Positions 9,311 through 31,053 are shown, numbered from the stretch's first letter. The stretch: 64,000 nucleotides of DNA from Patescibacteria group bacterium (GCA_041753515.1 JBGSUE010000045.1:2027-66026), one strand, 5' to 3'. Notes: generated from the letters alone by a model not told the origin. Program-made: numbers and translations.

Positions 9311-11070
9311 TCTATTATATAGTGTCCCATCACCAGATAGTCAATATCGGTTTTTATAAAACAATTGATTGCATCACGGGGTGTGCAGACGATCGGTTCG
9401 CCGCGCACGTTAAACGACGTATTGATGATAGCCGGAACGCCCGTCAACTTTCTGTATGCATCAATAAGATCATAATAGAGGGGATTATCTGCCCGGCGCA
9501 CAACCTGCAGCCGCCCCGTACCGTCTACATGGACAGTTGCCGGCACCCCGGATTTCCCTTTTTTCGTAAACGGATACACAAACAGCATGAACCTAGCTGA
9601 TTCCGGTATCGGCATATCAACCGTAAAATACTTCGTCACATATTCCTCAAGTATGGAGGGAGCAAACGGACGAAACATCTCTCTGTGCTTTACTTTTGCG
9701 TTGATGATATCCTTCATCCGGTCATTTTGCCCTGACGCCAGAATACTGCGGTTGCCGAGAGCCCGCGGCCCCCACTCCATCCGTCCCTGAAACCATCCGA
9801 TTATTTTCTCTGTATGAAGAAGTAATGCAACTGAATCGATAAGTTTTTCATCAGAGGGATACTTTTCATAAGAAAATCCATACGCGTCTAAAACAGATTG
9901 GATATGCAAATCATCATAGGAGGGACCAATGTATGGTGTAAAATTTGGATGATAGACAGGATTTTTGTCACGCCAATATGCGTACAGCGCAGCTCCCATG
10001 GATCCCCCACCGTCGCCCGGATCAGGTGGAATATAGATGTTTTTAAATGAAGTTGTACTCAAAATTTTTGCATTGGCTACTGAATTGAGCGCCACGCCAC
10101 CGGACAGACAGAGATTTTTGTTTTTATACGTATCGTATGCATGACGGATGATGTGAAAAAGCACTGATTCAAGTTTCTTCTGCAGTGCTGATGCAATATT
10201 CTCATACGGTCGTGTCATGGCGGAACCGGGACGCCGGGGGGGGACTCCAAACAGCTTTTCAAGATCTTTTGTAAACATATGATCTGCATAGACGTATGAA
10301 AAATATTTGATATTCACCGCATAGCTGCCGTCGGCATAGACCGATATCAGCTCATCCATGTGGGAGGAATATGGAGCCGGATCACCATACGCGGCAAGTC
10401 CCATCACCTTGTATTCGGCATCATTCACTCCGAATCCCAAAAATGCAGTCAACGCAGAATACACAAGTCCTACAGAATGCGGAAAACGGATTTCCCGGTC
10501 AATGGAAATTTTTCCAAACTCTCCCATCCCGAGAGTCGTCGTAGACCATTCCCCGACCCCGTCGACGGTCATGATAACGCATTTTTTATATCCCGACAGA
10601 TAATACGCCCCCGCCGCGTGGCTCATGTGATGAGGAACGAATGAAACAGGTCCGGAATAACCACACTGTATTTTGAGTGTCCGGGAGAGTGAAAGTCGGA
10701 ATGAAAACCACTGACTGATCGATTCCCTGTACACTCCCATGCTTTTTGGGAATGTTGAAAGATGCTGGGCAAGAATACGCTCAAATTTCACAACCGGTTT
10801 TTCGTAAAATGCAACCTCTGTCACTTCCCTGATATCAATCATGGCCCATGAAAGGCACCAGCGGATGGCGTGAACAGGAAATGAATTGTCATGCTTTATC
10901 CGGGTAAAACGCTCTTCCATTGCAGCTGCAACAATCGTACCGTCAACGATGAGACAGGCGGAGGAATCGTGGTAATAGCAGGCAATGCCCAAAATAACGG
11001 ATTTCATACTAAAACATACTCCCGGTGTCATTATTACCGCTATACGGTTCCCATGTAGAATCTGTTTCAT
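9277..11070 (-). CDS. carbamoyltransferase, NodU/CmcH (HypF-like) family
   Basis: N-terminal ILGIACYYHDSSACLIVDG Kae1/YgjD-like fold, ~600 aa, C-terminal carbamoyltransferase domain. Confidence 0.85.
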   Translation of the reverse strand: MKQILHGNRIAVIMTPGVCFSMKSVILGIACYYHDSSACLIVDGTIVAAAMEERFTRIKHDNSFPVHAIRWCLSWAMIDIREVTEVAFYEKPVVKFERILAQHLSTFPKSMGVYRESISQWFSFRLSLSRTLKIQCGYSGPVSFVPHHMSHAAGAYYLSGYKKCVIMTVDGVGEWSTTTLGMGEFGKISIDREIRFPHSVGLVYSALTAFLGFGVNDAEYKVMGLAAYGDPAPYSSHMDELISVYADGSYAVNIKYFSYVYADHMFTKDLEKLFGVPPRRPGSAMTRPYENIASALQKKLESVLFHIIRHAYDTYKNKNLCLSGGVALNSVANAKILSTTSFKNIYIPPDPGDGGGSMGAALYAYWRDKNPVYHPNFTPYIGPSYDDLHIQSVLDAYGFSYEKYPSDEKLIDSVALLLHTEKIIGWFQGRMEWGPRALGNRSILASGQNDRMKDIINAKVKHREMFRPFAPSILEEYVTKYFTVDMPIPESARFMLFVYPFTKKGKSGVPATVHVDGTGRLQVVRRADNPLYYDLIDAYRKLTGVPAIINTSFNVRGEPIVCTPRDAINCFIKTDIDYLVMGHYIIDKSKITNPKSQ

Positions 11071-18835: not shown

Positions 18836-19114
18836 ATGTTTCAAGTTTATGTAATTCGGGCAAGTACGAATGGGAAAATATATATCGGGCAAACAGAAGA
18901 TATCGCTAAAAGATTGGATCAGCATAATAATCGCAATTTCGACAAACGTGCATATACAAAACTAAACGGAAAAGATTGGAAGATTGTGTATACTGAAGAA
19001 TATCAAACAAGATCTGAAGCTTTAAAACGAGAAAATGAACTCAAATCACACAGAGGAAGAGACTTTATTAAAAATTTACTTTCGGGGGTCGGTAGCTCAA
19101 CGGTAGAGCAGTAG
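18836..19114 (+). CDS. GIY-YIG nuclease family protein (YhbQ/UPF0213-like), second copy
   Basis: VYVIRASTNGKIYIGQTEDIAKRLDQHN; TAG stop falls at positions 8-10 of tRNA-Lys. Confidence 0.75.
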   Translation: MFQVYVIRASTNGKIYIGQTEDIAKRLDQHNNRNFDKRAYTKLNGKDWKIVYTEEYQTRSEALKRENELKSHRGRDFIKNLLSGVGSSTVEQ

Positions 19115-19158
19115 CCTTTTAAGCTATTGGTTCAGGGTTCGAATCCCTGCCGACTCAC
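19086..19158 (+). tRNA. tRNA-Lys (anticodon TTT)
   Basis: Hand-folded cloverleaf: acceptor GGGTCGG/CCGACTC, D-stem GCTC/GAGC, anticodon loop CTTTTAA, T-arm CAGGGTTCGAATCCCTG. Confidence 0.85.
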
Positions 19159-20927
19159 AAATTAGCATGTTTTACCCCGAACTTATCAGCAAGAAGTTGC
19201 TGAATAAGATATTGTGGTAAATTAAGTTGAATATCAATCTTGTCAGGTATTAACTGATCCTTCTTTGGTACACCAGCAATGCGATCCTTGTCGGTCTTTG
19301 GTCGGGCATACACAACAACTTGATCTATGATCATATGGATGAGTTCATACAATTCTTTTTCATCCTTTTCTGCTTTATTCAAGGCTTTCTCGTATTTTTT
19401 GGCATAAAGCTCCAGACTATACACATAGCCCTTTGATAAAGACTCCTGAGCAAGCTCAAAATCAATCTTTTTAATGCTTTCATTGCAATTACTTTCTTGT
19501 TTTTTTAATTCAGCAATTTGCTTGTTCAGTTCTTCAATATCAATATGTCCATGTGCGTGTTGATTGAGGATATTAGTCTTGATCTTGGGTATGGCATTAA
19601 GTATCTTAGTCCATCGCTTTCGTTCTTTTTTCAAACGATCAATGTTAATGCGAGATGAGTCTAACCCTTTCTGATATTCGTAAGTAGCTTTGGGATTGCT
19701 TAAAAGTTGCTTAACAAACTCAATAACATATTCTTCTAACTCATCTGCTGGAATAGGTATTACTGGACAGTTGTTCTGAGGGTATTTCTTCTTGTTTTTT
19801 CTGTTGCATTGGTAATAATAGGAAAAGTCTAATTTTTTACCTACATATTTTCTTGCTCCTGTCCAAGACCATTCGGATTCTTTTGATCCTCCCAGACTCC
19901 TGCAATGGTCGCATTTTAATAGACCAGATAGCAAGTAAAAATGTTGGTCAACCTTTCTCTGGGCAAGAGTTCTCCTTGCAGAGACCTCCTTCAATATCTT
20001 TTGAGCCAAATCAAACAATGGTTGCGGGATTATTGGCTCATGTTTATATGGAGATAATTTCCACTCACCCTTTGGTAAACGCTTACTTTTAACTGTCTTG
20101 TCGTAGTAGCGAGTACCGATATACACCTCATCCTCCAAGATCGATCTCACTGTTTCCATACGCCAGAAATGTATTGGGTTGGTCTTGCGAGGTTTTCCCT
20201 TGCGCTTGTTGTTGTTAATCGCTGAGATTTCAGGACTAACCATTTTTTGCTCCTGGAGAGTGTCTGCAATTTTCTGTGGACTGAGTCCACCTGTTGTAAA
20301 TAATCCAAAAATCATTTCTACAACATCAGATTCTTCCTTGAGAATTACCAAGTGTCCATTTTCGTCCTTGTTGTAACCATAAGGAGCGTTAGCCCCCATT
20401 AACTTTCCTTGTTTTATCGCTTCTTCACGACCACCTCTGGTTCTTGCCAAGATATTTTCTCGTTCAAGTTCTGCAAGGACGCCCATAATGCCAAGCATAG
20501 CCTTACCAAATGGGGTAGAAGTATCTATACTTTCAGTTGCCGAGAGAAACTCAATTTTATTTTCTTCAAAAAACTCAACAGTATCCATCAGTATCCGAAG
20601 TTTTCTGGCAAAACGATCTATCTTGAAAACTGCCACTGTATCAAAAGGTTTGTTACCCTTGGGAGCGAGAAGATAATCCTCCATCAATTTTCTGAAACCT
20701 GGTCTTTCTTCAAGTTTTACAGTTCCACTAATGTCATCATTATAGACGTGGTTTTCACCAGCAAATACAAATGATGGTTGCCCACTGTTCATATTTAACT
20801 TCGTTTTCAATAATGCTTCCACTGCTGATCTCTGAACATTAGGCCCAAACTTTTCTGCCTGATCATCTGTTGAGACTCGAATGTAAAAGGCAACCCTTCG
20901 TGGGATTTCTTGCTGTTTTCTATCCAT
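19155..20927 (-). CDS. large serine recombinase (serine integrase type)
   Basis: N-terminal resolvase catalytic domain (AFYIRVSTDDQ), recombinase domain and Cys-rich zinc ribbon (CDHC..CNRKNKKKYPQNNC), 590 aa. Confidence 0.9.
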   Translation of the reverse strand: MDRKQQEIPRRVAFYIRVSTDDQAEKFGPNVQRSAVEALLKTKLNMNSGQPSFVFAGENHVYNDDISGTVKLEERPGFRKLMEDYLLAPKGNKPFDTVAVFKIDRFARKLRILMDTVEFFEENKIEFLSATESIDTSTPFGKAMLGIMGVLAELERENILARTRGGREEAIKQGKLMGANAPYGYNKDENGHLVILKEESDVVEMIFGLFTTGGLSPQKIADTLQEQKMVSPEISAINNNKRKGKPRKTNPIHFWRMETVRSILEDEVYIGTRYYDKTVKSKRLPKGEWKLSPYKHEPIIPQPLFDLAQKILKEVSARRTLAQRKVDQHFYLLSGLLKCDHCRSLGGSKESEWSWTGARKYVGKKLDFSYYYQCNRKNKKKYPQNNCPVIPIPADELEEYVIEFVKQLLSNPKATYEYQKGLDSSRINIDRLKKERKRWTKILNAIPKIKTNILNQHAHGHIDIEELNKQIAELKKQESNCNESIKKIDFELAQESLSKGYVYSLELYAKKYEKALNKAEKDEKELYELIHMIIDQVVVYARPKTDKDRIAGVPKKDQLIPDKIDIQLNLPQYLIQQLLADKFGVKHANL

Positions 20928-21057: not shown

Positions 21058-21753
21058 TCAACTTGGGACAGGCTGACTAATTACAGGTTTCCCTGAATAG
21101 TCAATTAAAGTTAAGCCATTTTTAGCCAAAATTTCTGCCAATCTTACTTCGGGTGGCCTGAAATCATGGGGAGTATCATCAAATGAAACTGATTCTTCAA
21201 TAATCTTGGTTTTTTCTTCAACCAGTAGGTGTAGGTTATTTCTTCCAATAAAGTCGTTAATGACCTTCATAACAGAGAGGACTGGCGTTACAGAATCGTT
21301 GACGATTTTGAGTGGCATCCCTATCTTTTCTTCTTGCTCCAACGCCTTATCAAGTCGTTTGACTAACTTTGGTAACAGTTTTGTGGACAGGTACTCCATT
21401 TGCTCCAGTGAGGCTTTTTGCAAATCAGATCGTAGTAAGTCCAATTCAACTTCTTGTTTAACGACCAGTGCAATCCGTTTCGTGAGGCTGGCTTTATGAT
21501 ACTTATTCCTGTAATTCTCAACTGCCTTGTAACTGGGAAGTTCAACTGCTGGATATTGCTCACAAAGAGCTGCTAAGGCTTTTACTGGAGAAAGTTTATG
21601 AGTAAGAAGCTCATCGAGCTTGGTTCTTACTTCCTGGGGCAAAGCATGGATACTGGACTTAAAACCATCTCGTTTAAGTTGAGTTGCTTTCTGGAGATTG
21701 GCAACTCGGGTGAGATAGAAGTCGTCTTGTGGATTAGTATTTGGATCAATCAT
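21058..21753 (-). CDS. DUF3486-like phage protein (Mu gp27 / small terminase-like DNA-binding protein)
   Basis: LPQEVRTKLDELL...SYKAVENYRNKY pattern typical of DUF3486. Confidence 0.4.
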   Translation of the reverse strand: MIDPNTNPQDDFYLTRVANLQKATQLKRDGFKSSIHALPQEVRTKLDELLTHKLSPVKALAALCEQYPAVELPSYKAVENYRNKYHKASLTKRIALVVKQEVELDLLRSDLQKASLEQMEYLSTKLLPKLVKRLDKALEQEEKIGMPLKIVNDSVTPVLSVMKVINDFIGRNNLHLLVEEKTKIIEESVSFDDTPHDFRPPEVRLAEILAKNGLTLIDYSGKPVISQPVPS

Positions 21754-21848
21754 ATTCGCTTACTTAATTATAGCGAAAATGAGGGGTTTTGATCCATCTA
21801 TTTACAATTACTATCCTTCCATTTAGAAGGCTGCTGACCTGGAAAGTG

Positions 21849-22832
21849 TTACGAAAGCACTTTTTCTTTCAATTGCCCTATTAGTTTTCCCTCAATTTCA
21901 ATTTCACCGCTTTTTAATTGCTCTTGCGTATCAAACTCAGTATCAAATCCAGGTATGTGGATTTTACCATCTGGTTTTGTTCTTCCAGATTTAACCTTTT
22001 TCACCAACTCCGAGGAATTTTGCTTAAACTTATCAGTTCCAATTAAAAGATTTGGGCTAAATGCCATATAAAATGTTCCCCAATCTCCTTCATCAAATAC
22101 AAAAGATGCTCCTGTCAATGCACCAGCCAACAACTCCACCACCATTGCAAGACCAGACCCTTTATATGAACGATCAAACGGAAGAATCGCACCTTTCATA
22201 GCTAATTCTGGATCGGTGGTTAATTCACCATTTTTATCTACTGCGACATTTTCGGGTAACTTTTGACCTAACACCTTTGCCCTAACCAATCCATACCATG
22301 TTATTGCTGATGCAGCCATATCAAAGACGATAGGGTGTTCAATCGTTGGAAAGCCAAATGCGATAGGATTCGTACCATATGCCGGATCAATTCCTCCATG
22401 ATGTAATACTCCTCGTGGAGAACTTGCTGCTACAATTCCTATTAAATCTTGCTGTGCCATTTTTCTGGCATAGTAACTGATTGCCCCGACACTTGAAAAA
22501 GTATTATTTGTACCTACAACAGCAAATCCTTTTTTCTTTGCGATCTCTATTGCCTTATCTGTTGCAACTTGAGCTGCAAGAGGTCCAGCTGCCCCTCCAC
22601 CATCAATTAAAGCTGATAGCTCTGTCTCTTTAATAGTCTTTGGAGGGTATTTTGGTTTTATATCCTGAGCAGGCTCTGAACCAAGTAATTTGAGCAGTCC
22701 TTGAGTGTTTTTCCCTGTAAGTTCTGCGTACAAAAAAACATCAGCAATTTTCTCTGCTTCATCAGCTGAATAGTATTTGCTTGTTAGAGCTTTTGTCATT
22801 AGCTCTCTCAACTTTGAGATTTTTATCTTCAT
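21849..22832 (-). CDS. Ldh_2 family oxidoreductase (malate/L-lactate/ureidoglycolate dehydrogenase family 2)
   Basis: Overall Ldh_2 architecture (~330 aa), GTNPIAFGFP and HGG motifs. Confidence 0.7.
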   Translation of the reverse strand: MKIKISKLRELMTKALTSKYYSADEAEKIADVFLYAELTGKNTQGLLKLLGSEPAQDIKPKYPPKTIKETELSALIDGGGAAGPLAAQVATDKAIEIAKKKGFAVVGTNNTFSSVGAISYYARKMAQQDLIGIVAASSPRGVLHHGGIDPAYGTNPIAFGFPTIEHPIVFDMAASAITWYGLVRAKVLGQKLPENVAVDKNGELTTDPELAMKGAILPFDRSYKGSGLAMVVELLAGALTGASFVFDEGDWGTFYMAFSPNLLIGTDKFKQNSSELVKKVKSGRTKPDGKIHIPGFDTEFDTQEQLKSGEIEIEGKLIGQLKEKVLS

Positions 22833-22921: not shown

Positions 22922-23476
22922 TTACTGTAATTTCACTTTTGCACCTTTGCCAAATAATGAACCTTTGACAAGAAGCATAGGATTACTAATATCTGATGGT
23001 AAATCAAATACTAAGTCTCCTGTGACAGAAAGTGATGGTTGAACCTGTTGCAAGAACAGATCAACATTTCCCTGAGCCATACCTTTGGCTGTTTGACCCT
23101 CGATTGAGCGTTCAAACTCACGACCTTGATCATCAGTCACTTTTGCCATTGAACTGTCAAAAGTAGCTGTCTTGTTACCTTTATTTTCTATCTTCAAAGT
23201 CACAACATAGAATGTGCCTTGTGAGTTCTTCTGGGTGTATGAATTACCCAGAGACTTTGCAGTTTCAACATTGGTAACTGTGAAAGCTAAATCACCATCT
23301 TGGACTACTTCATTAAGTCCATATTGTTTTTCGCTTTCAGCCTTACTACCTCCATTGGAAGCAGAATTACTGTTGGAGTTAGATGATTGATTGTCTGACT
23401 TTCCAGCTCCAGCAATTGCTCCGATAACGATAAGTACAACGAAGCCGATAAGACCCCATTTTAGGATTTTCTTCAT
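22922..23476 (-). CDS. DUF4352-like membrane-anchored protein
   Basis: N-terminal TM, Ser/Asn-rich linker, C-terminal beta domain (LAFTVTNVETAKSLG...TFYVVTLKIENKGNKTATF) typical of DUF4352. Confidence 0.6.
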   Translation of the reverse strand: MKKILKWGLIGFVVLIVIGAIAGAGKSDNQSSNSNSNSASNGGSKAESEKQYGLNEVVQDGDLAFTVTNVETAKSLGNSYTQKNSQGTFYVVTLKIENKGNKTATFDSSMAKVTDDQGREFERSIEGQTAKGMAQGNVDLFLQQVQPSLSVTGDLVFDLPSDISNPMLLVKGSLFGKGAKVKLQ

Positions 23477-23523: not shown

Positions 23524-23610
23524 TCTATTTTTTTAGAAAATAGATGGTTATAAGCGTAATTATAGCAGAAAACACCCATTGTAGTGCGTGGATTAGTATG
23601 GGTGTTTTTT
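23524..23610. promoter_or_regulatory. divergent control region with 8-bp palindrome TCTATTTTTTTAGAAAATAGA and an ACACCCAT/ATGGGTGT hairpin plus T-tract immediately upstream of the XRE gene
   Basis: Perfect palindromes between divergent genes; candidate operators or attenuator. Confidence 0.4.
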
Positions 23611-23623
23611 ATGTAATAAGAGC

Positions 23624-23881
23624 ATGAAACCAAAAACGATCGAAAGATCACAGGAAAGGAGAGAGGAAAAGAAGAAGTTTGGTTCTAAAATTGGCAAGCA
23701 TCTGAGAAAGATTAGAGAGTCAAAAAATATCAGTCAGGAAAATCTTTCTTTGGCTGCTGGCTACTACCGAACTTATGTAGGTAAGATTGAGATGGGTAAC
23801 TATTCTCCCAGTATGCACACAATTTGGAGACTATCGCATACGTTGGGTATGTCACTCGAGGACTTCTTCAAAGGATTTTAA
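23624..23881 (+). CDS. XRE-family helix-turn-helix transcriptional regulator
   Basis: HTH_3 pattern ISQENLSLAAGYYRTYVGKIEMGNYSPSMHTIWRLSHTLGMSLEDFF. Confidence 0.8.
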   Translation: MKPKTIERSQERREEKKKFGSKIGKHLRKIRESKNISQENLSLAAGYYRTYVGKIEMGNYSPSMHTIWRLSHTLGMSLEDFFKGF

Positions 23882-23882
23882 T

Positions 23883-24389
23883 CTATTGGCTTTTTGGCAT
23901 ATTCCGATGTATATCAATAAACCATCGGCTAAACTCATCTCTTAAATTTCTGATCCAATTAGCAATATCTTGTCCTTCACTCATCAATTCCATAAAGCGT
24001 TTATCGTAGTATTCTTTCTGAAAATGGAATACTCCATTTCGATAGCGTCTAAGCAATTCAACATTTGGAGATTTTAGTAGTGAATCAATTTTAGGATCAG
24101 TCAATTTTAATTCTTGCCATCCTTCAATAAGCACATAGAAAGTTCCATACCAAAGAGACATATAAAGAAAAGTATCAATGCCATTTTCAGTTTTTGGTAA
24201 TTCCACAGCAACAGGTTTCGACTCTGCCCTTTTAAGAATCTCATCGAAATGAACTCTCATTCTATCTGCCCAAATAAAATATCTATGCAGTGTGATAATT
24301 TCAGGTGTTAATTGGTTTTTGGTATCAGGATTTTCTGACATATTCGTATTATATCGAAAATCAGAATTGAGATTCATCTCTTTCCTCAA
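23883..24389 (-). CDS. hypothetical protein with HEPN-like R-N-x3-H motif (possible abortive-infection RNase)
   Basis: LLRRYRNGVFHFQ fits the Rx4-6H HEPN signature; helical; convergent with the XRE gene. Confidence 0.35.
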   Translation of the reverse strand: MRKEMNLNSDFRYNTNMSENPDTKNQLTPEIITLHRYFIWADRMRVHFDEILKRAESKPVAVELPKTENGIDTFLYMSLWYGTFYVLIEGWQELKLTDPKIDSLLKSPNVELLRRYRNGVFHFQKEYYDKRFMELMSEGQDIANWIRNLRDEFSRWFIDIHRNMPKSQ

Positions 24390-25002
24390 AAAACTGATAC
24401 AGCTCTAAGCACGCTTTCTTTGTTTTATCCTCCCCAGCAATATGCTTTTTATTCTTTATTCTTGATCCTTCTCGAAAGAACTCATTATCATCTTTGCCTA
24501 ATTCACGGCCTCGTTCAGTATGCTCATCAATGGCATATTCAGGTATCTCAGGCTTCCATCCTTGCTCTTTGCGTTTCAGAAGCACACCACCGAGATAATC
24601 AGTGTGACGTGATTTCTTGCTCCGAGCCATGTACGAAATGATGAACCCAAGAACATTGTTATCAACTTGGATCATTTTCTTTACCTTATCTTGAGCCAGC
24701 AGAGAAGAATATGTACTACTTACAAGAATCATTGCTTCTGGATTTGCCAGTCCAATATCTTCACCAGCGATAACTTGTAATCTTCTGAAACAGTATCGCC
24801 AAAATCCTGATTCATTTAGTTCAAATGCCCAATATGAAGCCATCAACTCATTACCTCTGCGGATTTCCTTTTGTAAAGCACTGACTATCTCATCTAACTT
24901 ATATCCATTTTTTGTTCTCAGTTCAAAACCTTTATACTTTTCAACCTTTTGTTCTTCGGTTTCTGTTGGTGTGTTTAATAATTTTTGTTGCTTTGTTTTC
25001 AT
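24361..25002 (-). CDS. hypothetical protein (island cargo)
   Basis: 213 aa, no recognised motif. Confidence 0.4.
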   Translation of the reverse strand: MKTKQQKLLNTPTETEEQKVEKYKGFELRTKNGYKLDEIVSALQKEIRRGNELMASYWAFELNESGFWRYCFRRLQVIAGEDIGLANPEAMILVSSTYSSLLAQDKVKKMIQVDNNVLGFIISYMARSKKSRHTDYLGGVLLKRKEQGWKPEIPEYAIDEHTERGRELGKDDNEFFREGSRIKNKKHIAGEDKTKKACLELYQFFEERDESQF

Positions 25003-25097: not shown

Positions 25098-26021
25098 TTA
25101 GTCAAAATTGATGGTATTAAATGTCTCGTAAAATCTTGGTAAATCAGCTTTCTTTTTAAGATTGTCATTGTAGACTTGAAGCATTTCTAAACTTTTGTGT
25201 CTGGTGTACTGGGCAACTGTAAGAATGTCACCTTTGTATGCCTTGATTAACTTGGTAGTGAAGTAGTGACGAAAGCCATGAACTGTTTTGTCAATCTCAA
25301 GGCTTCTAAGAATCGGGTTTATTAGGCAACGTATTGATTTGGTAGTTAAACGATGGTTTCGGCTGTTATTGCTGGTACTGGTGAATAACGCACCATCAGC
25401 AATTTTGTATTGCCTAATGTAATCTTTGAGGGCTGCAACAGCTACTGGATGTAAATCAATGATTTCTTTGTCATCCTGTCCCTTACCTTGAATAAAGGCT
25501 ACCTGTGAAACAAGATCAATTTCAGTTACATCCAGGCGAACTATCTCAATTTGTCTAAGTCCTTGCAGAATCAGGAGACTTAAAAGGGCTTTGATTCGAC
25601 TGGTGGAAAGATTAGAGTTTTGGGCTTGAATGTAGCTGAGGATTCTTTGTACTTCTTCCTCTGAAAAGCCATCTTTTTTATGTTTTCTGCTTTGTTGAAA
25701 GGATTTTACGTTTTGTGTAATGTCTATTGGCAAGTACCCTTGACGATGTAATTCTTTGCAATATACCCTTGCCACAATTAAATACTTATTCTTAGTGCTG
25801 ACAGCAAAATCAGTCCGTTGAGACAGGTGTCGCTTATATTCTAAGTAGCTATGCTTGGTAAATCCCTGTTTTTTAATGAAATCAATAAAACTGCCAATTC
25901 TTGAATAGTATTCTCGCCTGGTGTTTTCTGAGATATCCAAATGAGCGAATACCTGTGCGTTCCAATCAATAGGTACTAAATTATTTTCCATAACCATCTC
26001 TGCTCCAAGCAAGGAGTTCAA
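25098..26021 (-). CDS. tyrosine recombinase / phage-type integrase
   Basis: C-terminal catalytic HGFRHYFTT (HxxR) and terminal Tyr region TVAQYTRHKSLEMLQVY; N-terminal SAM-like domain. Confidence 0.85.
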   Translation of the reverse strand: MNSLLGAEMVMENNLVPIDWNAQVFAHLDISENTRREYYSRIGSFIDFIKKQGFTKHSYLEYKRHLSQRTDFAVSTKNKYLIVARVYCKELHRQGYLPIDITQNVKSFQQSRKHKKDGFSEEEVQRILSYIQAQNSNLSTSRIKALLSLLILQGLRQIEIVRLDVTEIDLVSQVAFIQGKGQDDKEIIDLHPVAVAALKDYIRQYKIADGALFTSTSNNSRNHRLTTKSIRCLINPILRSLEIDKTVHGFRHYFTTKLIKAYKGDILTVAQYTRHKSLEMLQVYNDNLKKKADLPRFYETFNTINFD

Positions 26022-26315: not shown

Positions 26316-26780
26316 GTGAAATCAGTCAATATGACAAATAATAATCTTTCGGTGGTTGACGCAATCAATCTTTCTTCTATTGAGTTACTTGTACCGCTAA
26401 TTGATAAGTACCCAGTACTGAAGAACATTTTGAATAATAGTAAAAGCAAAAATCCTTCAGATGACTGGGATTATTTTATGACCGCAGCAGGATCAGGGAT
26501 TGTTTTGATCTCAAGCGAAACATACAAAGGCGAGCATAATGAAGTGAAATCCAGAGCTTCTGAAATATACAAAGATATACATAGAGCAATTGAGGACTTT
26601 ATTGCCTTCATGAACAAAAATAAAGCCACTGATAAGCTGATCCCTCCCACGATCGGCTTATGGGTACTTTGGAACATCAAGCAAGAAGAACCTTCCTACG
26701 ATGAAATGAAAGAACTTGCACCTGTAATAGGTAATTTACTTATTAAAATTATCTCTGACTGGAAAAGCAGCAGAAGTTAG
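26316..26780 (+). CDS. hypothetical protein, first gene of a five-gene island operon
   Basis: 154 aa; tightly spaced with the downstream genes. Confidence 0.4.
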   Translation: MKSVNMTNNNLSVVDAINLSSIELLVPLIDKYPVLKNILNNSKSKNPSDDWDYFMTAAGSGIVLISSETYKGEHNEVKSRASEIYKDIHRAIEDFIAFMNKNKATDKLIPPTIGLWVLWNIKQEEPSYDEMKELAPVIGNLLIKIISDWKSSRS

Positions 26781-26803
26781 TAATTCTTTGGAGGTAGAAG
26801 TAA

Positions 26804-27952
26804 ATGAAGTTTGGAATTAGAACGCCATCGTTGAAGCGGAGAATTGCAGCCAGAACATCCTGGAAGCGAGTAGTAAGGCATAATTTGGGCTTGAAAGCTC
26901 CCAAGGGGATGGGGATATTAACAAACCCGAAGAAAGCTCTGTATAACAAGGTATATAATAAAACAACAGTGAGTGTAGATAATTTGCTGAAAGGGCATCC
27001 ACCTATACCAGCAGTACCATCTACTTCTCATAAACCAAATATGGAAGATCAACACCAATCAGGCATTCAAATAAACAACACAGGAAGCATTATCAGAAGC
27101 TCAAGCAAGGCTTTGACTGTCACCAGTAAGAACTTTCACAAACTTCGACAGGAGATCACGGATATTTACAACCAGAGACAGGAGTTAATTAAAAAACTCA
27201 ACTCTGCAAAGACTAAATTGTTTCTTCTGACTACAGTACATTTCGGGAGCTATCTGGTAATTATTGGTTTCTTCTACAAGAAAATTGCTGAATCAAGAAA
27301 TACTCAGCAACAGATTGTCAAAGATTTGGAAAAGCAGGTTTCAGAAACCTTCGTTAACCTTACGTTTGCTGACAAATCCCAACTGGAAAAAAGCTGGCTG
27401 AATTGCATTGATACCTTTAAGGAACTTATGGGTAGCGAAAAGATTTGGGACATTACTTACGCAGAGGGGGTTAACAGAGCACAAGCACGTACAGTAGCTC
27501 AGACAGCCACCAAGAGAACCTTGATCCCCCGCACTGAACGAGAGATTGAGTTTATCAAGAGTGACTTGCCTCATTTGCTTCTTCCCAACGCTAATGGACC
27601 AGACGTGTTTTTCTATCCCACATTCTTACTACTGTTCAAAGACAATCAGGAGTTTGGTATTTTTGATCTTAAAGAAATAACAGTTGCTATGAAACTTTCA
27701 GGATACATTGAAGAAGAAAGCGTTCCAAAAGATACTGAGATCATTCAGCACACATGGAAAAAAGCCAATAAGGATGGCTCTGGAGACAAGCGATTCAAAG
27801 GGAACTATCAGATTCCCATAGTGAAATACGGAGATATGACGATTGAAGCAGAGGGAGGACTTGAAGAATCATTCATGTTTAGTAATTTCGATGCTTTTGG
27901 TGATTTTGCAAAAACCTTTGAATACCACGCCTCATTATTGCGCAAGCTCTAA
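26804..27952 (+). CDS. hypothetical protein with basic DUF4236-like N-terminus and one central TM helix
   Basis: MKFGIRTPSLKRRIAARTSWKR... then LFLLTTVHFGSYLVIIGFFY TM, ~200 aa C-terminal domain. Confidence 0.45.
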   Translation: MKFGIRTPSLKRRIAARTSWKRVVRHNLGLKAPKGMGILTNPKKALYNKVYNKTTVSVDNLLKGHPPIPAVPSTSHKPNMEDQHQSGIQINNTGSIIRSSSKALTVTSKNFHKLRQEITDIYNQRQELIKKLNSAKTKLFLLTTVHFGSYLVIIGFFYKKIAESRNTQQQIVKDLEKQVSETFVNLTFADKSQLEKSWLNCIDTFKELMGSEKIWDITYAEGVNRAQARTVAQTATKRTLIPRTEREIEFIKSDLPHLLLPNANGPDVFFYPTFLLLFKDNQEFGIFDLKEITVAMKLSGYIEEESVPKDTEIIQHTWKKANKDGSGDKRFKGNYQIPIVKYGDMTIEAEGGLEESFMFSNFDAFGDFAKTFEYHASLLRKL

Positions 27953-27954
27953 CT

Positions 27955-28713
27955 ATGTTTGGCATCTTCAATAAAACGAAATACTCAAATGACGATGACG
28001 CAATAACAGCACTCATGCGAATCTCCAGTATGGGTTTTGGTGGTGAACAAGATTTTGAGAAAAATAACATGCTCAAAGTATTGGAAGAAGTTGAAGGTTA
28101 TGCCAGTAATCTTCAAAACCCTAAACTTGGCTATTGGTTGGGTATTGCTTGGAGAAACTTTACTGCATGGCACATCAGGGGCGATGAAAGAAAAGAATAC
28201 CTTGAAAAATCAGTTTACTACTACGATAAAGCACTGGAACTTTCCAAAAATAGATTACCTATCCAATTACCCCTCGAACAACGTCATGATGCTGAATATC
28301 TTGATCAAATAGATATTGCAGGGGATTTAGGTGACATGCTGGTAAACGAAGTGCCTATTAGAGATTTAGATCGTGCTGAGAAAGTATTGCAGTTTGTTTT
28401 TGACAACACTGATGAATACGAGCCTTGCCTTTGTGCTTATGCTGAACTCTTTTACAAGCGTGGCAATTATCTCAAGAGTGCCGAGATAGGCTTAGATATC
28501 AGCGACAGGTGTGCAAAATCACCTGAATGGAGAGACGATCCACCCCCTGCTCCATTGGGAATTGTAGGGAGCGCATATAGAGCCTTAGCAAAACAGGCAA
28601 AAAAAGCAGGCAGATCAAATGAAGCGATTGAGATATTTCAGAAAATGAAAGATTTGAAGGTTGCTTCTGAAAATGATTTGAAGATACTTGAACGACTGCA
28701 ATCAGAAAAATAA
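27955..28713 (+). CDS. hypothetical helical (TPR-like) protein
   Basis: Starts 3 nt after the upstream stop; repeated amphipathic helix pairs (YLEKSVYYYDKALELSKN). Confidence 0.45.
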   Translation: MFGIFNKTKYSNDDDAITALMRISSMGFGGEQDFEKNNMLKVLEEVEGYASNLQNPKLGYWLGIAWRNFTAWHIRGDERKEYLEKSVYYYDKALELSKNRLPIQLPLEQRHDAEYLDQIDIAGDLGDMLVNEVPIRDLDRAEKVLQFVFDNTDEYEPCLCAYAELFYKRGNYLKSAEIGLDISDRCAKSPEWRDDPPPAPLGIVGSAYRALAKQAKKAGRSNEAIEIFQKMKDLKVASENDLKILERLQSEK

Positions 28714-28762
28714 TCTTATAACACTTACTCCAGGCTGGCTCATCTCTTGATATAATCAGAGC

Positions 28763-29587
28763 ATGAAATTAAGCGATGGTGCATCCGAAAGAATAAAAGA
28801 AAAATTAGATAAACTCAAAACTCGAGTTGGACATAGAAAACTCATTTCTGACATTCTGTTTCCTTCAAAACAGAAAGAACTAAATCGACAAGTTGTCAAT
28901 CAATATGCGGATAACTTGGACAAGAAGATAAAAAGGATCGAACCACTAATACGATCGTTGAAGTCACATACTGACTACATTGGCGATCCAGACAAGTTTG
29001 TTGCAGCTTATTTGCTCATAGGCAAAAGTTATACCAGTCTCAAGGCGGTAACTATCTTGGTAAGACAAGGCTACTCATTTCAGATAGTTGAGCTTGTTAG
29101 ATCATCAATGGAGTCACTGAATCTCTCTGTGCTCTTTTTTGAAGATGGACAGGAGGAGTTATTAAAAAAGTGGTTTGAAGGCGAAATTGTTGGCAATAGA
29201 AAGGCTCGTGAGGTACTTAATGCTGCTGTTAATAAGATGAAACAGGATATGGGAGACGAACAAGTACCGATGAAAGAAGCGTTGTCTGATGTCTACTCCA
29301 TTTACTCGGCCTACACACATAGCGGATACTCTGCACTGTTTGATTTCATTGACGTTTTCAAAGAAGATTTTGATTTCGAACAATACACACAATTTCATTA
29401 CAGCCGCAAAAACCTTGAATTGATTGATAATCTCTACTTCAATACCTTGCTTGGTCTGAAAAATTACTACATCAGAGCAAAAGACGAGGAAAACTTGGCA
29501 AAGGTCGAGGCTCTGATAAGTAAGGAAGGTGGACAACTTGCAACTCCTGAACAAATTGCTATTGAAATGCAAAGATATAAAAAATGA
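28763..29587 (+). CDS. hypothetical protein (weak Rx4H motif RSLKSH)
   Basis: 274 aa; stop overlaps the next start (ATGA). Confidence 0.45.
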   Translation: MKLSDGASERIKEKLDKLKTRVGHRKLISDILFPSKQKELNRQVVNQYADNLDKKIKRIEPLIRSLKSHTDYIGDPDKFVAAYLLIGKSYTSLKAVTILVRQGYSFQIVELVRSSMESLNLSVLFFEDGQEELLKKWFEGEIVGNRKAREVLNAAVNKMKQDMGDEQVPMKEALSDVYSIYSAYTHSGYSALFDFIDVFKEDFDFEQYTQFHYSRKNLELIDNLYFNTLLGLKNYYIRAKDEENLAKVEALISKEGGQLATPEQIAIEMQRYKK

Positions 29588-30552
29588 ACTGGAAAATAGC
29601 TACAAAAGATGTGAATCCAAACGATCCTAAAATAAAACAACTCTTTGATGAGGCTGTGGATGCTGCGCCTGCTGGTTATATAAAGGCAGATGCTTCGGGT
29701 AAGAATGTCGCAGAAGATACTGTTTCCATGCTTCCCAGAAAGCCAATAAAAGGAAAGTGTCGGTTATGCGGAGAAATTAGAGATTTGACGAAGGAGCATA
29801 TTCCTCCTAAATCGAGTGGAAACAAGAAAAGGCATACAACCCTTACATTTGACGATTGGTTGAGAGACAAATTAGAAGATAACCAAGAAGCAAAGCATAC
29901 TGTTGAGCAAGGTGGTATTTTCGGCTATACCTTATGCAGAAGCTGTAACTCCCTAACGGGCAACCTGTATGGCAATGAGTACAAGAAGTGGGTGGAATTG
30001 GCTAAGAAAAAAATAGATGGCTTCGGAAATGGGATAGTTCCGAAGCTGGACAGTTTAACTGGACCATTTGGTGAGAACTTCACTTTTGGTAGCAAGGAAG
30101 ATGGATCAGTAAAGCCAGGAGCATTTGTACGTCAGGTATTATCTTGTTTGTGTAGTTTAAGTGGTTCATGGAATCTGGCAGAAAGGTATCCAGCCATTAG
30201 ACGTATTACTTTAGAGCAATCAACTGAGCCACTACCTCAAGGAATGGAATTGGGAATGTTCATTTTCTTCGGGCCACGAGTTCGTGTTCATGGGCCACAG
30301 TTAAAAATAGATGCAAAGACTCTGACTTGGCGATGGGTTCAAGAAATAGCTTATTCTCCTTTTGCCTTCCAGTTTGTAATTGCAAGTAATAATCCACAAC
30401 CAGGCTTGGGATTGCTTATTGATAACTTCACTACGTTAAAACCAGAGACAGAACAGTATTATAGTGGCCTTTTGGAAATGGGGTTTGGATGGAGTCCTTA
30501 TCCAGGTGATTACCGATCACAGACTGCTATACGTGCTTCACGCAAGTCTTAG
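29584..30552 (+). CDS. HNH-endonuclease-domain protein with ~200 aa uncharacterised C-terminal domain
   Basis: GKCRLCGE ... EHIPPKSSGN ... LCRSCNSLTGN matches the CxxC..(D/E)HIxP..GG..N..LCxxCN HNH core. Confidence 0.55.
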   Translation: MNWKIATKDVNPNDPKIKQLFDEAVDAAPAGYIKADASGKNVAEDTVSMLPRKPIKGKCRLCGEIRDLTKEHIPPKSSGNKKRHTTLTFDDWLRDKLEDNQEAKHTVEQGGIFGYTLCRSCNSLTGNLYGNEYKKWVELAKKKIDGFGNGIVPKLDSLTGPFGENFTFGSKEDGSVKPGAFVRQVLSCLCSLSGSWNLAERYPAIRRITLEQSTEPLPQGMELGMFIFFGPRVRVHGPQLKIDAKTLTWRWVQEIAYSPFAFQFVIASNNPQPGLGLLIDNFTTLKPETEQYYSGLLEMGFGWSPYPGDYRSQTAIRASRKS

Positions 30553-31053
30553 ACTATGCAGAGCGAGTCAGTGTGTGCAGTTTGTGAAGTGCTGTTTGGT
30601 GTTGAGTCTCAGTTGAGCAAATGTTTACTTGCAGAGATTTTACTGGAGACAGTGGGTTGTTGAAGATAATTTCCTTCTCTTGATATTTTAGCTGCAGCCT
30701 CGTTCCATGGGTATAGTACTGTTCCAGAAGTTCCTCTACTGTCGGTAATTCTTCTGTTTTCAATTCCTCTTTGAGTAAGGAAACCTTTTTCTTCTTCGCT
30801 GACTCCTGTAACCCAGCCAGTAAATCTGGAAGGTTCATTTTTATTTTGGTATTTCCGTCTTTGTTTTTCATTCATACCTATTCTAACAATTTTTCTGTCT
30901 AAATGGTAATGTCGAAACACAAGAGGATACCTGTCATAGTATTCTTGGGGTATAATATACCTGTCAGGGAGTTCCTGGTAATACTCGTTCTCTGACTAAA
31001 AATATAATCTTCACACTTCCGGCTTATGTGCTGATTTGATATCATAGCTTTTT

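Follow-up and report, generated by a model that had tools for sequence, protein, structure and literature searches.

Five plus-strand open reading frames (ORFs), here p1 to p5, occupy positions 26,316 to 30,552 of a 64,000-nucleotide (nt) stretch of DNA from a Patescibacteria group bacterium (GCA_041753515.1 JBGSUE010000045.1:2027-66026), the whole of which is referred to below as the window. They are probably the variable cargo of a ~12-kb integrative island of the candidate phyla radiation (CPR), a mosaic of at least three independently moving cassettes whose last gene, p5, probably encodes an autonomous defence DNase. Rather than forming a single conserved operon, the genes of this cargo region are shuffled as separate cassettes. 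An initial inspection of the DNA on its own (the sequence-only reading) had taken them for a five-gene operon in an integrase-bounded island and had proposed a candidate defence or accessory system. Its five same-strand ORFs are all present (Table 1), with spacers of 23, 2 and 49 nt for p1/p2, p2/p3 and p3/p4 and a 4-nt ATGA overlap for p4/p5, and so is the tyrosine integrase upstream, with a Phage_integrase match; a large serine recombinase belongs to the island too. Tight same-strand spacing within a mobile island is, nevertheless, no evidence for a single system.

Mosaicism of the cargo region

Loci around homologues of p5, p2, p4 and p1 were collected from public assemblies, from genome, metagenome and viral collections and from plasmid and phage records, ~120 in all, and each was searched by tblastn with all five proteins (counts are of raw loci, duplicates included). 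p2 was alone in 73 and p5 alone in 20, with p2 plus p3 in 11, p4 plus p5 in seven and p4 alone in four; one locus each had p2, p3 and p4 together, p2 with p4, and p1 by itself. No related locus had all five, p1 was never found with any of p2 to p5, and neither p2 nor p3 was found with p5 outside the window. The five-gene unit is thereby refuted, because no related locus holds all of it and the genes recur singly or as the pairs p2-p3 and p4-p5. Conservation of the five-gene order, on which the sequence-only reading had itself staked the proposal, is absent, and the sensor/effector logic by which that reading joined membrane, tetratricopeptide repeat (TPR) and nuclease parts is not supported, given the failure of p2 or p3 to co-occur with p5 outside the window.

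Comparison with sister islands reveals how the differences arise. The closest (L111) has in common with the window, by blastn, the serine recombinase, the DUF4352 gene, the helix-turn-helix (HTH) gene, the MgsA_C gene, the integrase, p4, p5 and the region of o105, a small ORF just beyond p5, with nucleotide identities of 80% for p4, 87% for p5 and 87.5% for the o105 region. In place of p1 to p3 it has a 60-amino-acid (aa) ORF and an 814-aa SMC/LmuB/AbiLi-like ATPase, an Abi_alpha-like 243-aa gene lies between its p4 and p5, and an extra 206-aa gene follows p5. In another (L031) the intergenic DNA on the integrase side joins p2 directly, without p1, a truncated p4 stands at the end, and there is no p5. 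A third (L025) has the same HTH, MgsA_C and integrase trio and, further on, p2 followed directly by p4, without p3 and p5. These differences are whole-gene insertions or deletions, all at gene boundaries. The recurrence of the trio in L025 and L111 suggests a conserved CPR element backbone. (Another recurring cassette pair is seen in Roizmanbacteria-type islands, where 472-474-aa and 178-aa proteins, neither with a Pfam match, follow p2 or p2-p3, as at L009 9948-11916 and also in L033, L035 and L036.)

The closest known kind of arrangement is the recombinase-marked defence island with single-gene cargo turnover. Serine recombinases mark defence loci, and DUF5677, the family of p4, is enriched beside them (PMC12632615). 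As in those loci, the low-GC island is framed by recombinases, a large one of the serine type and a tyrosine integrase, its cargo varies gene by gene, and that of relatives includes restriction-modification, Abi, TIR, OLD and SMC-like genes. The present case differs in that the host is an uncultivated CPR bacterium and in that PADLOC has no model for any of the five cargo proteins.

Table 1. Features of the island, with positions counted from the first letter of the window
Feature	Position	Strand	Remarks
tRNA-Lys (UUU)	19086..19158	+	left edge of low-GC island; ARAGORN, Rfam, GC profile
large serine recombinase	19155..20927	-	Resolvase + Recombinase + Zn_ribbon_recom; backbone; Pfam; 74% nt identical to L111 (blastn)
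DUF4352 protein	22922..23476	-	backbone gene, common to L111; Pfam
XRE-type HTH regulator	23624..23881	+	backbone; Pfam; next to MgsA_C and integrase in L025, L111
MgsA_C-only protein	24361..25002	-	RarA C-terminal domain without ATPase; backbone; Pfam E 8.9e-10; kept beside integrase in L025, L111
tyrosine integrase	25098..26021	-	divergent from cargo; Phage_integrase E 2.9e-20
p1, small protein	26331..26780	+	unannotated family, separate cassette; 149 aa from ATG; 154 aa from GTG 26316
p2	26804..27952	+	basic N-terminal module, helical hairpin with one hydrophobic segment, conserved alpha/beta C-terminal domain
p3, helical, weakly TPR-like partner of p2	27955..28713	+	sub-threshold TPR hits; adjacency/fusion with p2
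promoter-like extended -10 box (TTGATATAAT)	28747..28762	+	4 nt before p4 ATG; left boundary of p4 cassette
p4, DUF5677-family helical protein	28763..29587	+	Pfam sub-cut-off, homologue annotation, alignment
p5, zinc-finger HNH (His-Me) nuclease domain and conserved C-terminal alpha/beta domain	29584..30552	+	nuclease domain ~residues 55-125
o105, small convergent ORF	30554..30871	-	1 nt from p5 stop; no family match (profile searches)

The p5 nuclease, p4 and their neighbours

There is good support for the prediction that p5 is a zinc-finger HNH nuclease. Its full-length homologues number 95, of ~320 aa, and eight residues (C59, C62, E71, H72, N80, C118, C121 and N122) that spell CxxC...EH...N...CxxCN are invariant in 60 homologues, so that the active-site and zinc-ligand positions of an HNH domain are intact and the clear HNH core seen at first inspection is borne out. 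Against HNH_5 (PF14279) p5 itself scores 21.5 bits, below the cut-off of 27.5, and 57 of the 60 family members match at E<=0.01 (the best at 4.6e-8). The structure model is a confident one (pLDDT 89), with strands at 56-58, 65-73 and 112-118 and a helix from 119. The 200-aa C-terminal domain is strongly conserved and, as the sequence-only reading had it, unrecognised: it has no Pfam or PDB relative, a PDB profile search with the family giving no matches, and no modified-base reader (SRA, PUA/EVE, SBD and the like) was found in p5.

HNH_5 His-Me finger nucleases are group 1 of PMC5714182, which includes the McrA-type modification-dependent enzymes. With these p5 shares its signature, its occurrence as a solitary gene, restriction-rich surroundings and, in this island, the lack of a cognate methyltransferase; it differs from them in having its HNH at the N-terminus with a 35-aa insert, and in a 200-aa C-terminal domain that bears no resemblance to readers of SRA or PUA type. 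p5 has no match in 50,697 phage genomes and only one contig in IMG/VR. The significant PHROG matches in the cargo are all of unknown function, and no profile assigns these genes to structural or replication functions of phages, in keeping with the initial view. Shorter, distant relatives of p5 stand alone on Vibrio and Listeria plasmids.

The company kept by p5 homologues is diverse and recurrently defensive. At eight loci (window, L002, L014, L111, L117, L012, L006 and L008) p5 has a 4-nt overlap with, or a gap of 1-4 nt to, the gene upstream. In two of these (L006, L008) it directly follows a 591-593-aa DUF7380+DUF4209 protein that matches PADLOC PDC-S39 (E 2e-46); elsewhere it comes 235 nt after a DUF4145 protein resembling PD-T7-4 (L022) or, on an Iamia plasmid (L115), after a TIGR02391 protein. 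On a contig labelled Bathyarchaeia (L017 9059-10974) a ThsB-like TIR gene and an 8xMP octameric-membrane-protein gene are directly upstream of a frameshifted p5. In L001, L004 and L030 there is no same-strand upstream gene. More broadly, neighbours include a type III-like ResIII with a methyltransferase (L002), a type II restriction endonuclease with a C5 methyltransferase (L004), an SNase effector with DUF4238 (L001), an OLD-family ATPase (OLD/AAA_21; L021), a 1364-aa HTH-Mrr-STAND protein (L030), and HerA-like DUF87 and ImmA/IrrE genes.

Three of these families, DUF4145, Ymh/TIGR02391 and DUF4209, belong to the HEPN group and are typically encoded in operons linked to restriction-modification (Anantharaman et al. 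2013, PMC3710099). For Abi_alpha a role in abortive infection in E. faecalis has been reported (PMC6356687); a literature search for EMARD/DUF4209 found only unrelated myopathy papers. The HEPN/Abi genes of such operons (DUF4145, Ymh/TIGR02391, C6orf70/DUF4209) are what lies upstream of p5 homologues elsewhere, together with those of PDC-S39, PD-T7-4 and Abi_alpha (PMC6356687); all encode small or helical proteins of defence type and are coupled to the gene of a DNase. The window differs in that its upstream gene encodes a DUF5677 protein with an R/Kx4H motif in an atypical position only. A predicted defence flavour for p4 and p5 is well supported by this neighbourhood context of restriction-modification, TIR, OLD, STAND-Mrr and Abi genes, and to that extent the original suggestion of a candidate defence system survives, though as a single system of five genes it does not.

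The assignment of p4 to DUF5677 (PF18928) comes from a sub-threshold score (23.8 bits, E 5.4e-5, against a cut-off of 27.1) together with precomputed PF18928 annotation in 28 of 50 close homologues. The weak Rx4H motif (RSLKSH) to which attention had been drawn is kept in part: H69 is invariant in the alignment, and the R64 column is not, having K in some rows. In addition, R/Kx4H is N-terminal to the DUF5677-matching region; in HEPN proteins the motif (Rx4-6H) opens the final core helix of their four-helix bundle. Pfam yields no HEPN family match for p4; hhalign against the DUF4145 protein gave a probability of <1%, and it detected no relation of the p4 family to the Abi_alpha-like and DUF4145 partners of p5. 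A PDB profile search with the p4 family was likewise without a match.

What accompanies p4 is its promoter-like box. A TGATATAAT box is always 4-5 nt before the p4 ATG and travels with p4 into five other contexts that share no related DNA beyond it; the blocks of blastn homology begin at 28744-28761. Because the box stays with p4 and the DNA beyond it does not, p4 resembles a cassette equipped with a promoter of its own, and p4-p5 would be transcribed apart from p1-p3. A 22-nt motif (TTnATnTAATnAGAGCATGAAA) is shared by 23608-23629 and 28747-28768, putting a -10-like box 4-8 nt before the ATGs of the HTH gene and p4, and hints at leaderless transcripts from both. A generic promoter and terminator scan stayed at background level.

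p4 occurs with p5 (L002, L014, L111, L117), alone (L026-29) and after p2 (L025), the lone p4 in Levybacteria being beside an Eco47II-type restriction-modification pair. Its adjacency to p5 is direct in the window, L002 and L014, and in L111 and L117 a homologous 243/244-aa Abi_alpha-like gene intervenes. The five p4-p5 islands have different backbones. L002, which has the same 4-nt overlap as the window and aa identities to it of 75% (p4) and 69% (p5), has its pair adjoining the ResIII gene and methyltransferase and Phage_rep_O. In L117 the serine-recombinase island (p4, Abi_alpha-like, p5) is seemingly inserted in a Mg-chelatase (comM-like) gene, two parts of which flank it (1-254 and 9995-11068).

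The p1 and p2-p3 units and the island setting

The p1 ORF is present as originally read, with a different length: its start is most likely the ATG at 26331, because the exact 149-aa product is on record for the source contig and the 154-aa GTG form is not. With 115 cluster representatives retrieved at E<=1e-3 in an exhaustive HMMER search, the p1 family is judged to be real though unannotated. It has no match in Pfam, PDB, PHROG or PADLOC, a viral-contig scan found nothing for it, and the locus of one homologue (L113) has no p2 nearby.

The p2 family is very large (277 protein clusters, and metagenome matches numbering at least 448) and has a conserved C-terminal motif (TWKKANKDGSxDKRFxGNYQIPIVKYG in p2) and an optional N-terminal module. 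In p2 that N-terminus is, as described at the outset, strongly basic (16 K/R against 1 D/E in 65 aa); its supposed DUF4236 likeness has no Pfam match (PF14020) at E<=1. PF14020 is carried, at the same N-terminal position, by distant p2 homologues only (P0187-P0208), and a literature search for DUF4236 found nothing functional. The central transmembrane helix is represented by one hydrophobic segment, residues 139-157, that is marginal (KD19 1.91). Over its full core p2 matches phrog_17982, a PHROG without assigned function (E 2.5e-43), and residues 1-64 are matched by PHROGs 3374, 10934 and 29766; it shares with PHROG 17982/DUF4236 proteins both that full-core match and an N-terminal 63 aa that stand alone in Firmicutes phages. 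The CPR clade of p2 is unlike the distant DUF4236 members in having the hydrophobic segment and a TPR-like partner. Residues 1-63 (26804-26992) constitute a mini-domain that has travelled very widely; they have 60-67% identity to 67-aa ORFs that stand alone in Paenibacillus and Geobacillus phages (L116 3501-3704), where they lie in accessory regions with transposase genes on their flanks. A PADLOC hit of p2 to PDC-M65A (E 0.0012) is spurious, being to a coiled-coil region and recurring in 2/49 family members.

p3 is helical with weak TPR similarity, and to that degree the earlier description holds, though its TPR profiles are all below cut-off (TPR-S 18.9 against 27.6 bits; TPR_2 17.6 against 27). 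It directly follows p2 in L009, L031, L032, L035, L036 and L064, is one gene further on in L040, and is fused with the p2 C-terminal domain as one ORF in L045 (9989-11680) and L046 (2862-4322) as well as in 561-612-aa proteins (P0152, P0154, P0158). Because of adjacency and gene fusion, the latter being good evidence, p2 and p3 are probably functionally linked. The link is not universal: p2 is without p3 in L025, L033, L037, L039, L041-44 and L047, and none of ~60 distant p2 homologues (29-40% identity) has a p3-like neighbour, profile hidden Markov model search included. Speculatively, a surface- or entry-related accessory function for p2-p3 would fit the membrane-proximal architecture and the phage accessory regions.

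GC content is 0.36-0.40 across 19-31 kb and 0.42-0.50 in the flanks on both sides. From the left the ~12-kb island has tRNA-Lys, the large serine recombinase, the DUF4352 gene, the HTH gene, the MgsA_C-like gene, the tyrosine integrase and the cargo, and then come host genes. Two recombinases are therefore present in one island, the serine recombinase directly abutting tRNA-Lys and the tyrosine integrase 5 kb off. A 168-aa ORF lies between the XRE-type HTH gene and the MgsA_C-only gene. Between the serine recombinase and the DUF4352 gene there are, at 21058-22832, a 231-aa ORF and an Ldh_2 (malate/L-lactate dehydrogenase family) gene, neither of which is in the sister island L111, making for a further cargo difference.

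To the right, o105 has homologues near p5 with 83% aa identity in L111/L112 and 45% in L017, and may be linked either to p5 or to the island end; a 103-aa ORF overlapping it in another frame is less conserved. Past o105, where GC rises again, is a VTT/DedA membrane protein. A tandem 22-nt direct repeat (ATACCTGTCA...) at 30927-30978 is intergenic, at the right island edge, and a one-mismatch inverted copy of the ATACCTGTCA motif is near the left end (19241-19250), the motif count being not above chance. A direct-repeat search for attachment (att) sites, comparing the tRNA-Lys end with the right edge, gave chance-level short repeats only. The host is most likely a bacterium of the Microgenomates group of CPR/Patescibacteria, because the named homologues come from metagenome-assembled genomes of Candidatus Roizmanbacteria, Woesebacteria, Levybacteria and Microgenomates.

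Competing explanations and significance

On the explanation preferred here the region would be a cargo hotspot of a CPR integrative-element family, filled with independently exchanged cassettes, in this instance p1, p2-p3 and p4-p5. p2, probably membrane-tethered and with a conserved alpha/beta C-terminal domain, would work with the TPR-like helical p3. p4-p5 would form another transcription unit, with the promoter-like box that accompanies p4 driving its expression. p5, a putative zinc-finger HNH DNase, would most likely be the nuclease effector of an anti-mobile-element defence and able to act alone, whether as a type-IV-like restriction enzyme, with its C-terminal domain selecting the substrate, or as an abortive-infection nuclease. 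It may simply be co-transcribed with whichever defence gene is upstream, the arrangement reflecting compaction or loose cooperation. p4 would be a helical Abi-like protein that either modulates p5 or belongs to a single-gene cassette of its own. Several considerations weigh against this explanation. p5 may depend on a partner, given that it is linked to p4 in five islands and translationally coupled to its upstream gene at ~10 loci. The single DUF5677 ORF assayed in E. faecalis did not count among the genes with defence activity (PMC12632615), and PADLOC-DB v2 has no model matching any of p1 to p5 (the sole weak match being the spurious one to p2), which is also why the early verdict that no named defence system fits can be retained. 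The type-IV-like idea for p5 has to be drawn entirely from context because its C-terminal domain resembles no known modified-base reader. The locus sample is modest, several loci being one element seen in different metagenomes, and in this genome the packing of all five genes on one strand makes read-through co-transcription possible.

The partner question is at the centre of the main alternative, a two- or three-component system in which p4, alone or together with the Abi_alpha-like protein, acts as infection sensor or keeps an obligate HNH effector, p5, in check, while elsewhere other HEPN/Abi-type proteins (PDC-S39-like, DUF4145, TIGR02391) take the sensor role with p5 as shared effector. 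It is plausible, though less likely, given that p4-p5 linkage extends to five independent islands in which p5 identity is 63-87%, that the close coupling to the upstream gene set out above holds at eight loci including the window, and that three types of p5 partner are HEPN families; what counts against obligate partnership is that p5 can lack a same-strand partner (L001, L004, L030) and p4 can lack p5 (L025, L026-29), that two of the partner types resemble single-gene PADLOC entries (PDC-S39, PD-T7-4), and that hhalign detects no relation of p4 to the other partners. Involvement of all five genes in one defence system, with membrane, TPR and nuclease parts acting jointly, is highly improbable: beyond common strand, tight spacing and location in a mobile island there is little to commend it, since the five are never together elsewhere, p2 and p3 are never near p5 in the related loci fetched, genes are exchanged singly in the sister islands L111, L025 and L031, and p4 has its own promoter-like box.

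There are two further explanations. p5 could be a selfish homing-type HNH endonuclease that inserts behind genes without benefit to the cell, as might be implied by its HNH domain, its scattered distribution among phyla, the variety of genes upstream of it and its insertion right at the stop codon of the gene before it. This is unlikely in view of its absence from the 50,697 phage genomes and its single IMG/VR contig, the strong conservation of its 200-aa C-terminal domain, the consistency with which its neighbours are defence genes, and the fact that it is never inside a conserved host or phage gene, an intron or an intein. An integron-like cassette array served by a divergent tyrosine recombinase would account for an integrase pointing away from a same-strand array that varies gene by gene. 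It can scarcely be credited when gaps of -4 to 49 nt give no room for attC, no structured inverted repeats were found at the junctions, the integrase is not IntI-like (48 bits with the integron-integrase model TIGR02249 against a cut-off of 265), and at least one cassette brings its own promoter-like box.

Little is known of defence in CPR/Patescibacteria with their tiny genomes. The island and its relatives amount to a CPR integrative-element family that swaps single-gene cassettes, some of whose families are missing from defence catalogues. As a defence candidate the p4-p5 pair, and especially the p5 family with its HNH and C-terminal domains (HNH-CTD), is of moderate interest. That the family is a new type of defence nuclease, with a zinc-finger HNH, a C-terminal domain lacking a solved-structure relative, and a role as portable DNase effector shared behind unrelated HEPN/Abi-type sensors (DUF5677, Abi_alpha-like, PDC-S39/DUF4209, DUF4145, TIGR02391), is a doubtful proposition; were it true, there would be a modular 'sensor + HNH-CTD' class extending from CPR bacteria to Actinomycetota and Planctomycetota. 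The p5 HNH-CTD protein is the most useful lead to emerge, combining a confident model without a solved relative, an intact active site and repeated defence-gene neighbours, and, if active, it would be a new nuclease effector and possibly the source of a new DNA-recognition domain.

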